A stretch of DNA of 26,193 nt, taken from a virus (Duplodnaviria; Heunggongvirae; Uroviricota; Caudoviricetes). Made by a program: the position numbers and the translations under genes. Location: IMG/VR virus record IMGVR_UViG_2671180431_000011. One strand, written 5' to 3'. Below the pieces are notes generated by a model, which saw only the letters and a list, made by a program, of their open reading frames with translations, was not told the DNA's origin and did not search any database. Positions 12,341-12,466 of this stretch are shown one piece after another. Each line of letters starts with the position of its first letter. The first letter of the stretch is position 1.

Positions 12341-12466
12341 GGCGGTACCAGTTTGTACCCTTGCTTCCGGCTGGTACCGCTCTTTTTACAAAACAGAGAA
12401 GAGCATCACCGGACGACGGGCTCATAACCCAATCCATCCGGGCGGCAGTCACCGCAGGTGTTCTTC
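12341..12466 (+). promoter_or_regulatory. Structured leader: two tandem terminator-like hairpins and a boxA-like motif upstream of the first early-left gene
   Basis: Perfect 10-bp inverted repeat GCGGTACCAG (12342-12351) / CTGGTACCGC (12371-12380) followed by TCTTTTT. CGCTCTTTTTACAA (12377-12390) resembles boxA. Second imperfect stem CAGAGAAGAGC (12392-12402) / GTTCTTCTCTG (12450-12460) followed by TTTT. Confidence 0.4.

Follow-up and report, generated by a model that had tools for sequence, protein, structure and literature searches.

How is an early leader organized in a lambdoid prophage when a hairpin of the terminator type stands between the early promoter and the genes that follow? This question is raised by the viral DNA of IMG/VR record IMGVR_UViG_2671180431_000011 (26,193 nucleotides; the window in the following), which is a prophage of the SfV/mEp460/ST64B/CPS-53 lambdoid type, common in Escherichia coli. 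Its leftward early region has the order CI-like repressor gene, OL operators, ∼590 nt without a conserved open reading frame (ORF) and yfdP-yfdQ-yfdR through to xis and int, and at the yfdP end of the ∼590 nt leader two RNA structures directly follow each other, here called hp1 and hp2 (Table 1). A first-pass annotation, made from the letters of the DNA, had taken the two structures for tandem terminators with a boxA-like motif between them, and had offered three explanations: a cis-acting antitermination RNA resembling put of phage HK022, a nut-like site for a factor encoded elsewhere or a small regulatory RNA (sRNA). It had called for fold prediction, covariance analysis and Rfam searches, and had named a conserved, unrecognized coding gene across the interval as evidence that would speak against it.

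In this study, the leader was analyzed by folding, covariation, covariance-model searches and comparison with homologous leaders. On balance, it is considered probable, by somewhat more than an even chance, that the interval holds two adjacent, independently conserved RNA modules: a terminator of an sRNA of the DicF/STnc100 class (hp1) and a processing or leader element of the RNase III type (hp2). The tandem terminators of the first-pass annotation are thus retained in part, the first hairpin being terminator-like and the second a conserved three-way-junction element.

The first hairpin and its relation to DicF and STnc100

The perfect 10 bp inverted repeat of hp1 (GCGGTACCAG, 12342-12351, and CTGGTACCGC, 12371-12380) extends to a 13 bp stem with a fold energy of −22 kcal/mol, and the T-tract that had been noted after it is present as C followed by T5 (12383-12387). 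A GC-rich stem of this length, followed directly by a U-tract after a single C, has the form of an intrinsic terminator, although it was bypassed by a simple terminator scan with a loop limit of 8 nt. The surrounding segment of 151 nt (12335-12485) folds at −72.4 kcal/mol, with z = −7.5 relative to 200 dinucleotide shuffles.

The position of hp1 is that of a known sRNA. Immediately before it lies module B, a homologue of the 5′ domain of the 190-nt DicF precursor, which is 89% identical to the sequence directly 5′ of dicF in the Qin prophage of E. coli K-12 (locus L009, 2752-2874) and which likewise matches the annotated 'dicF-like region' of phage P1. This region forms the 5′ part of the 190-nt DicF species, the 5′ end of which is made by RNase III and from which the 53-nt DicF is produced by RNase E (bioRxiv 10.1101/2023.04.14.536235); a 72-nt form with a 3′ end made by RNase III has also been described (PMC5069750). 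In the window, hp1 starts where dicF starts, and positions 12338-12354 align to DicF (UUUGGCGGUAYCAGUUU). Module B is found in 4577 of the 5426 complete E. coli genomes, and its combination with hp1 in 815 of them (∼15%).

The hairpins that occupy this slot share the 5′ arm UUUGGCGG and a U5-7 tail and differ in their loops. The set consists of canonical DicF (Qin and Evi), a duplicated variant in a phage labelled Actinobacillus, the P1 version, those of Enterobacter and Kosakonia and the present variant; the loop in Enterobacter and Kosakonia is UUUACCCGUGAG, close to UUUUACUCCGUGAC of DicF. Two host labels stand out among the loci. In the Actinobacillus phage vB_Apl-pPE4 (L215, 1500-1790) a DicA/DicF-type region is ∼85% identical to that of E. 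coli and carries the slot variant as a tandem duplication, and a contig labelled Chryseobacterium (L141) carries an enterobacterial-type hp2 together with yfdP. Both cases suggest host mislabelling, contamination or recent transfer.

A second relationship is found in SfV-type leaders with near-identical copies of both hp1 and hp2 (95-98% identity to the window over 12340-12530). Here hp1 is preceded not by module B but by a different module (module D), and in one such leader (L017) module D and hp1 are aligned by the Rfam model STnc100 (RF02076), with hp1 as the terminator of the model, at 45.4 bits against a threshold of 47. Sub-threshold STnc100 matches, together spanning 34-45 bits, fall both in the spacer between dicF and dicB or kil of the Qin type and in module D of the SfV type (L009, 2933-3142, Qin; L216, 1686-1871; L215, 1766-1950; L017, 2143-2365). 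Owing to these matches, STnc100, the DicF spacer and the present leaders look like one recombining set of modules. STnc100 has been related to PasD, with no function assigned to STnc100 (Zhu, Shabalina and Storz, 2026). The Pas sRNAs of enteropathogenic E. coli were considered as the identity of the element and rejected: PasA, PasC and PasD are neighbours of the Q, holin and lysozyme genes, and none of them is located in this leader.

The sRNA proposal of the first-pass annotation is thus supported for the first hairpin only, by its place in the DicF slot, the 89% identity of the precursor domain and the alignment as the STnc100 terminator in sister leaders. From this comparison hp1 is filed as a putative new seed variant in the DicF/STnc100 class of prophage early-leader sRNA terminators, and as a member of neither Rfam family.

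A covarying three-way junction directly after hp1

The second multi-stem structure that had been noted is also present, as a 25 bp helix closing a three-way junction. Its first base pairs are formed between the U-tract of hp1 and an invariant GGAGA (12477-12481), and in 17 of the 18 homologues listed a terminator hairpin with U5-7 likewise abuts hp2. An alignment of 17 sequences, evaluated with RNAalifold and by pair counts, has 97.5% of its cells paired and six compensatory pairs, a covariation value that was reached by none of 500 shuffles; among 62 distinct sequences 99.1% of positions are paired, compared with 42-52% in controls in which the partner strand was slid. Since G-U pairs are conserved, the RNA is that of the + strand. 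Of the analyses that had been called for, folding thus gave the z-score of the segment and covariance analysis the strong covariation of hp2. The third arm of the junction varies in sequence and ranges from ∼11 to 36 nt across homologues, with length differences that are not multiples of three.

A covariance model of hp2 (R1) scores 127 bits at the site and finds this copy alone in the window; two weaker matches of the model are located in the ban operon of P1, on the + strand under the minus-strand coding sequences plp and upl. Homologues occur in Citrobacter, Enterobacter, Kosakonia, Mixta, Buttiauxella, Salmonella (ST64B) and Shigella (SfII); 112 copies were collected from viral contigs, and 2492 of 5426 complete E. 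coli genomes (46%) contain the element. No RNA annotation is attached to it in the 30 records listed (30/30), and no description of it was found in the literature. As far as could be found, hp2 is apparently an undescribed structured element.

The element always lies 35-100 nt 5′ of a start codon. The gene that follows is mostly YfdP-like, is YfdR-like in SfII and one Enterobacter and, from a reading of the product N-terminus, is apparently RdgC-like at two loci. That hp2 precedes whichever gene comes first fits a portable leader. Between hp2 and the ribosome-binding site there is a small GC hairpin, and GC hairpins of different sequence stand in the same place in the ST64B, phiNP, Citrobacter and Kosakonia copies. 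In the minimum-free-energy (MFE) fold, CUGCUUU immediately 5′ of hp1 (12334-12340) pairs with GGAGCAG in the Shine-Dalgarno region of yfdP (12514-12520); in this folding model hp1, hp2 and the small hairpin could be drawn into one domain, with the ribosome-binding site masked.

The TTTT reported after the second structure is present but lies inside the covarying helix rather than after it, and this bears on whether hp2 is a second intrinsic terminator or an attenuator. Although the E. coli copies do have UUUU in the 3′ strand after a GC-containing helix, this U-run pairs with an upstream A-run, and the two change together from ACAAAAC/GUUUUGU to ACACAAC/GUUGUGU; because of this covariation, the U-run is missing in most other genera. 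Furthermore, nothing U-rich follows the complete helix, and a junction insert of 49 nt is atypical of terminators. A terminator function of hp2 is accordingly regarded as very improbable.

By comparison, an uninterrupted double-stranded helix of at least ∼20 bp between functional units is the form of an RNase III site, and here 25 bp are predicted with the support of covariation, in a position analogous to the site in Qin. The DicF terminator of Qin and Evi is directly followed by a long-range helix, of 21 bp in Qin, which encloses a structured domain and ends just before the ribosome-binding site of dicB or kil. The reported 3′ end of the 72-nt DicF falls inside the 5′ strand of the Qin helix. 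It is because hp2 is the counterpart of this post-DicF helix that we infer an RNase III site in it.

A mosaic leader

The whole leader folds with z = −4.8 on the + strand and −3.6 on the − strand. In BLAST comparisons with phage genomes the 590 nt break into pieces that have differing distributions and occur in different phages, and among 80 IMG/VR loci with an identical YfdP recurrent recombination breakpoints are located at 11949/11958, 12320 and 12340. The leader is therefore a mosaic, composed of RNA modules that move independently of each other. One of them, module A, is a non-coding domain of ∼250 nt with several hairpins near the start. Its copies in P1, flanked by trnI and ban, and in a phiV10-type phage, immediately 5′ of tRNA-Arg, are 78-82% identical; its consensus fold has seven compensatory pairs and G-U pairs on the + strand, and no Rfam model matches it. 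At the junction CTCAGC|GTTGTGG module A is joined to tRNA-Arg in the phiV10-type phage (L005, 2501-2745) and to module B in the window.

Counterparts of all of the leader modules are found together in the C1-controlled ban operon of P1 (L004, NC_005856, 68510-73694), amid genes for tRNA-Asn, tRNA-Thr and tRNA-Ile. The set comprises the dicF-like region, two copies that resemble hp2, a stretch that resembles STnc100 and module A, and the counterparts lie at 230-383, 1209-1333, 1496-1574, 1571-1690 and 2501-2685 of this locus.

Antitermination and coding potential

A boxA-like string, CGCTCTTTTTACAA, does stand between the two structures as had been noted, where it runs from the 3′ arm of hp1 through the U-tract into the first bases of hp2. 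If it were the boxA of a lambda-type nut site (boxA and boxB) used by a factor encoded elsewhere, its likeness to boxA would be explained. However, the stem and U-tract account fully for the string, and in homologues the position reads CGTCCTTTTT, CGACCTTTTT or CGCCCTTTTT, so that the string is not conserved. Matches of this type are expected 0.33 times per window by chance and occurred at least once in 27 of 100 shuffled windows. No boxB-type hairpin follows it, and no N-like gene was found among the early genes by RefSeq annotation or PHROG scans, in agreement with the first-pass annotation, which had also seen no N-like protein. The string is judged to be coincidental, and the nut proposal is abandoned as highly improbable.

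That no N-like protein was found among the early genes, together with a strong terminator 5′ of required genes, would rather favour a cis-acting RNA of the HK022 put type that allows processive read-through of hp1 and later terminators; HK022, too, is a lambdoid phage without N that has structured early-leader RNA. In addition, the structured module A starts ∼20 nt past the inferred transcription start, and the sister leaders of ST64B, SfII and phiNP have another covarying module after the leftward early promoter (PL) that contains CGAAC.GG and GGAUGA as in putL/putR. Against this, neither the window nor the leader of any other locus has detectable similarity to putL/putR (blastn, word size 7), and no similarity of architecture is seen. 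Every leader module is single in the window, with no second copy on the PR side, and in P1 and phiV10-type phages module A stands next to tRNA genes, at a great distance from any early promoter. Moreover, the interval that had been flagged comprises a terminator and what follows it, ∼400-450 nt past the inferred promoter, rather than an element 5′ of a terminator, and the weakly put-like module of the sister leaders is missing from the window. A put-type explanation is consequently not adopted here and is rated as distinctly unlikely.

The module of the sister leaders (module E) is of separate interest. It measures 70 nt, lies directly after PL (L006, ∼1940-2010, ST64B; L002, ∼2675-2745, SfII; L008, ∼1835-1905, phiNP) and has compensatory changes (GCGAA/UUCGC versus ACGAA/UUCGU; CCGG/CCGG versus CCUGG/CCAGG), and its similarity to HK022 putL/putR is limited to the two motifs named. 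Module E is a candidate put-like element of N-less phages of the ST64B type.

The remaining alternative is an unrecognized protein-coding gene across the interval. ORFs do exist mechanically (12294-12887 and 12310-12510 on the + strand, 12258-12713 on the − strand), and some GenBank records have hypothetical ORFs over these modules. However, each of the six frames has stop codons in at least four of the 17 homologues, so that no frame is open in all of them; insertions and deletions are not multiples of three, and substitutions have the pattern of compensatory base pairing. The gene that would have spoken against the first-pass annotation was thus looked for, and its existence is given almost no credence. 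The records concerned include mEp460_037/036 (L001, 3097-3465 and 3507-3650, minus strand) and several from E. coli, in which hypothetical proteins or N-terminally extended RdgC are drawn over module A, module B and hp2. Since the conservation there is of the RNA type, such ORFs may be mis-annotations.

The initiator-tRNA-like arm of hp2

One arm of hp2, with the sequence GGG-CUCAUAA-CCC, is its most invariant part across six or more genera. A 17-mer of this arm (CGACGGGCTCATAACCC) is identical at 16 of 17 positions to the anticodon stem-loop of the E. coli initiator tRNA gene metZ (CGTCGGGCTCATAACCC); the local alignment score of 29 compares with 13.2 ± 2.2 for shuffled sequences, none of 2000 of which reached it. 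The arm has three G-C pairs beside a 7-nt loop of the form N-U-CAU-A-N, a descriptive definition for which there is no curated family; three such pairs are typical of initiator tRNAs. CAU is retained in 111 of the 112 viral-contig copies, which were fetched with a pattern that excludes the loop, and the two divergent P1 copies retain GGG-NUCAUAN-CCC. From this sequence comparison the resemblance, although unexplained, is probably meaningful.

It is possible, if unlikely, that the main role of hp2 is to mimic the anticodon arm of initiator tRNA and so to engage some recognizer of the tRNA-fMet anticodon stem-loop. Candidate partners are the 30S P site with IF3, through which initiation at the first early gene would be controlled or seeded, MetRS, or an anticodon nuclease of the VapC/MvpT type, for which hp2 would be a decoy or sensor. 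Such a role is compatible with hp1 as an sRNA terminator. It is favoured by the match itself, which includes the three G-C pairs, U33, CAU and A37, by the invariance of the arm and by the constant position of hp2 shortly before a start codon. On the other hand, the resemblance was spotted post hoc and covers only 17 nt, and the remainder of hp2 does not resemble a tRNA: no cloverleaf is found in 11700-12700 by ARAGORN or by the Rfam tRNA model (E ≤ 10), and the only tRNAs of the window are at 18697-18786 and 19778-19853. A37 is replaced by U in the ST64B group and in 14 of the 112 viral copies, and no precedent was found in the searchable literature. Pairing of the CUCAU loop with the start codon was also considered and was dropped, as homologues do not agree in how far the loop is complementary to the start region. 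A genome-wide scan for the anticodon-arm motif returned mostly chance matches, several of them apparently in coding sequences of unrelated phyla; only ∼13 enterobacterial loci were true homologues.

A known mimic of a tRNA anticodon arm in an mRNA leader is the thrS operator of E. coli. In both cases a leader hairpin copies the anticodon stem-loop of a specific tRNA; they differ in that the tRNA copied by hp2 is the initiator and that the downstream genes are phage genes and not the cognate synthetase.

A broader joint reading, which is somewhat more doubtful still, combines the mimic with the mosaic. Each early leader would be an array of non-coding RNA cassettes that are processed and can be exchanged, and that lambdoid phages, P1 and phiV10-type phages have in common; these cassettes would be module A, the domain of the DicF precursor, the variants of the DicF slot, the STnc100-like domain, hp2 and tRNAs. 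In the same reading hp2 would be a widespread undescribed phage RNA element whose arm engages the initiation machinery or an enzyme that targets tRNA-fMet. It could then control the first early gene as a P-site ligand tethered in cis, or be a decoy for VapC-type anticodon nucleases or a sensor of them. This reading would have to cover hp2 in 46% of the complete E. coli genomes, in five or more further enterobacterial genera and in the two divergent P1 copies.

Proposed mechanism

The preferred reading, of an sRNA terminator followed by a processing element, would operate as follows. Upon derepression, an untranslated array of RNA modules would be transcribed from PL as the CI-repressed leftward early transcript. 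Some polymerases would halt at hp1, giving a precursor that would be processed like that of DicF; module B and hp1 together would form a species of ∼175 nt, and the C/U-rich loop of hp1 would be a candidate seed for Hfq-dependent pairing with targets. The 5′ strand of hp2 begins with the U-tract of the terminator, and hp2 would form only in transcripts that read through hp1. The 25 bp helix would then be the likely site of cleavage by RNase III, parting the sRNA from the mRNA and setting the 5′ end of the first-gene mRNA. The existence and conservation of the structures, the + strand as the RNA strand, the mobility of the modules between phages, the lack of a conserved coding frame and the homology of module B and hp1 to sequences of the DicF slot and the STnc100 terminator are established here; termination at hp1, a trans-acting function of the sRNA and the other steps that go further are what we infer.

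The closest parallel is found in the Qin dicBF operon, with DicF (Rfam RF00039) and the 190-nt precursor of this sRNA. In either case the RNA belongs to an early prophage operon under repressor control, and the two share the precursor domain, a terminator hairpin that starts with the motif given above and ends in U5, and a long helix that directly follows and closes a structured domain 5′ of the first small protein gene. In contrast to DicF, hp1 has a different loop (seed) and lacks the 12-nt 5′ tail, and the domain downstream is hp2 in the window but STnc100-like behind DicF. The lambda N leader contains an RNase III processing hairpin, and the helix of hp2 resembles it and the RNase III site 3′ of DicF in standing as a long double strand after a regulatory RNA and ahead of the ribosome-binding site of the first gene transcribed from PL. 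The lambda site lacks the invariant three-way junction, and cleavage at hp2 is a prediction only.

Several observations weigh against the preferred reading. The Rfam DicF model (gathering score 48 bits) gives no match at E ≤ 10 in 1001 nt or in 201 nt of the leader, whereas it scores 76.7 bits on Qin and 76.4 bits on Evi, which served as positive controls. The STnc100 model (47 bits) does not match the window either, because module B replaces module D there. A wider Rfam search, of the whole window at gathering thresholds and of the leader at E ≤ 10, returned two tRNAs elsewhere and chance-level matches, so that the Rfam search called for in the first-pass annotation left the leader without a family match above chance level. 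In a crude duplex test, hp1 pairs with ftsZ (−60 to +30) at −27.5 kcal/mol, while shuffled sequences average −32.0 and 85% of them do as well; DicF in the same test reaches −38.5 kcal/mol, with 6.6% of shuffles as good. As its pairing is no better than that of shuffled sequences, hp1 is not a functional DicF in the ftsZ sense. Furthermore, a strong terminator 5′ of needed genes, including xis and int, demands a read-through mechanism, and none was identified. A helix of 25 bp with a 49-nt junction at its tip departs from the classical form of an RNase III substrate. Finally, the initiator-tRNA-like arm is conserved far beyond the needs of an RNase III site, its invariant unpaired nucleotides point to a specific ligand and its role is outside the model.

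Prophage context

The gene map (Table 1) is based on PHROG scans and on the RefSeq annotation of a prophage that is 99.9% identical across the leader. In that prophage nothing is annotated between the repressor gene and yfdP, and the gap of ∼600 nt that had been noted is thus an unannotated leader. The motif TTGCN7GCAA has just three exact matches in the window (11095, 11878 and 11902), on both sides of the CI-like gene, and this restriction to the flanks of the repressor gene backs the OL-like sites of the first-pass annotation. The −35 element of the inferred PL overlaps the second OL site, and the layout of −35, 17-nt spacer and −10 is retained in SfII, ST64B and phiNP; a consensus promoter scan did not call it. 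From this layout the PL transcription start would lie at ∼11937.

Table 1. Positions of the leader elements and neighbouring genes in the window.
Feature	Position	Strand	Description and basis
CII-like gene	10228-10779	−	
Cro-like gene	10772-11032	−	
CI-like repressor	11130-11822	+	
OL-type operators	11878-11892; 11902-11916		TTGCATATCTCGCAA; TTGCATAATGCGCAA; exact TTGCN7GCAA
Inferred PL promoter	11902-11930	+	−35 TTGCAT 11902-11907, 17-nt spacer, −10 TATCTT 11925-11930; sequence reading
Module A	11958-12213	+	Multi-hairpin non-coding RNA domain, ∼250 nt
Module B	12214-12336	+	Homologue of 5′ domain of 190-nt DicF precursor; GUUGUGG/CCACAAC closes domain
hp1	12341-12387	+	13 bp GC-rich stem 12341-12353/12369-12381, 15-nt C/U-rich loop region, then C and U5
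boxA-like string	12378-12391	+	CGCTCTTTTTACAA; hp1 3′ arm, U-tract and start of hp2
hp2	12383-12481	+	25 bp basal helix 12383-12407/12457-12481 closing three-way junction; MFE fold, covariation
hp2 invariant arm	12409-12441	+	GGG 12418-12420, loop CUCAUAA 12421-12427 (CAU 12423-12425), CCC 12428-12430
hp2 variable third arm	12442-12455	+	GCGG-CAGUCA-CCGC
Small GC hairpin	12489-12504	+	CGACCU-UGCA-GGGUCG; between hp2 and ribosome-binding site; fold
yfdP Shine-Dalgarno	12512-12517	+	GAGGAG
yfdP	12525-12887	+	ATG to stop; first protein gene of leftward operon; ORF list, RefSeq annotation, phrog_204
yfdQ, yfdR, more small genes	3′ of yfdP	+	
Excisionase	15054-15290	+	
Integrase	15298-16284	+	

In E. 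coli K-12 a deletion in CPS-53 that reaches window position 12506 removed the leader, hp2 included. The deletion also took the repressor gene and PL, and in the K-12 yfdO-yfdP intergenic region (L214, 3748-4110) iteron-like repeats of the replication region are fused straight to the yfdP ribosome-binding site (window equivalent 12506). As the leader is no longer present in CPS-53, K-12 data sets (transcriptomic, RNase III and Hfq) are unusable for it.

Elsewhere in the window, overlapping ORFs on both strands with repetitive translations at 9454-9642 are due to tandem repeats of the GATTTTGAC type within the O-like replication gene (8942-9883), and these repeats are probably origin iterons. 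The two tRNA genes, tRNA-Ser(CGA) on the − strand and tRNA-Asn(GUU) on the + strand at the positions given above, lie ∼2.4-3.5 kb past the integrase gene, and the pair may mark the prophage end or attachment region.

Significance

The leader frames a question for the N-less phages of the SfV/ST64B type, namely how hp1 is read through when a strong terminator stands before xis and int. It also calls for a correction of annotation, as several phage records have hypothetical ORFs across the modules that may not be genes. DicF and other sRNAs of prophage early operons alter host division and metabolism, and the present comparison suggests that the DicF slot is a variable-seed cassette, of which the variant described here is carried by ∼15% of complete E. 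coli genomes. Next to it, hp2 is a structured element of 100 nt, apparently unannotated, that nearly half of the sequenced E. coli carry. Should its initiator-tRNA-like arm have a function, hp2 would represent a new phage route to translation initiation or to tRNA-directed defence.

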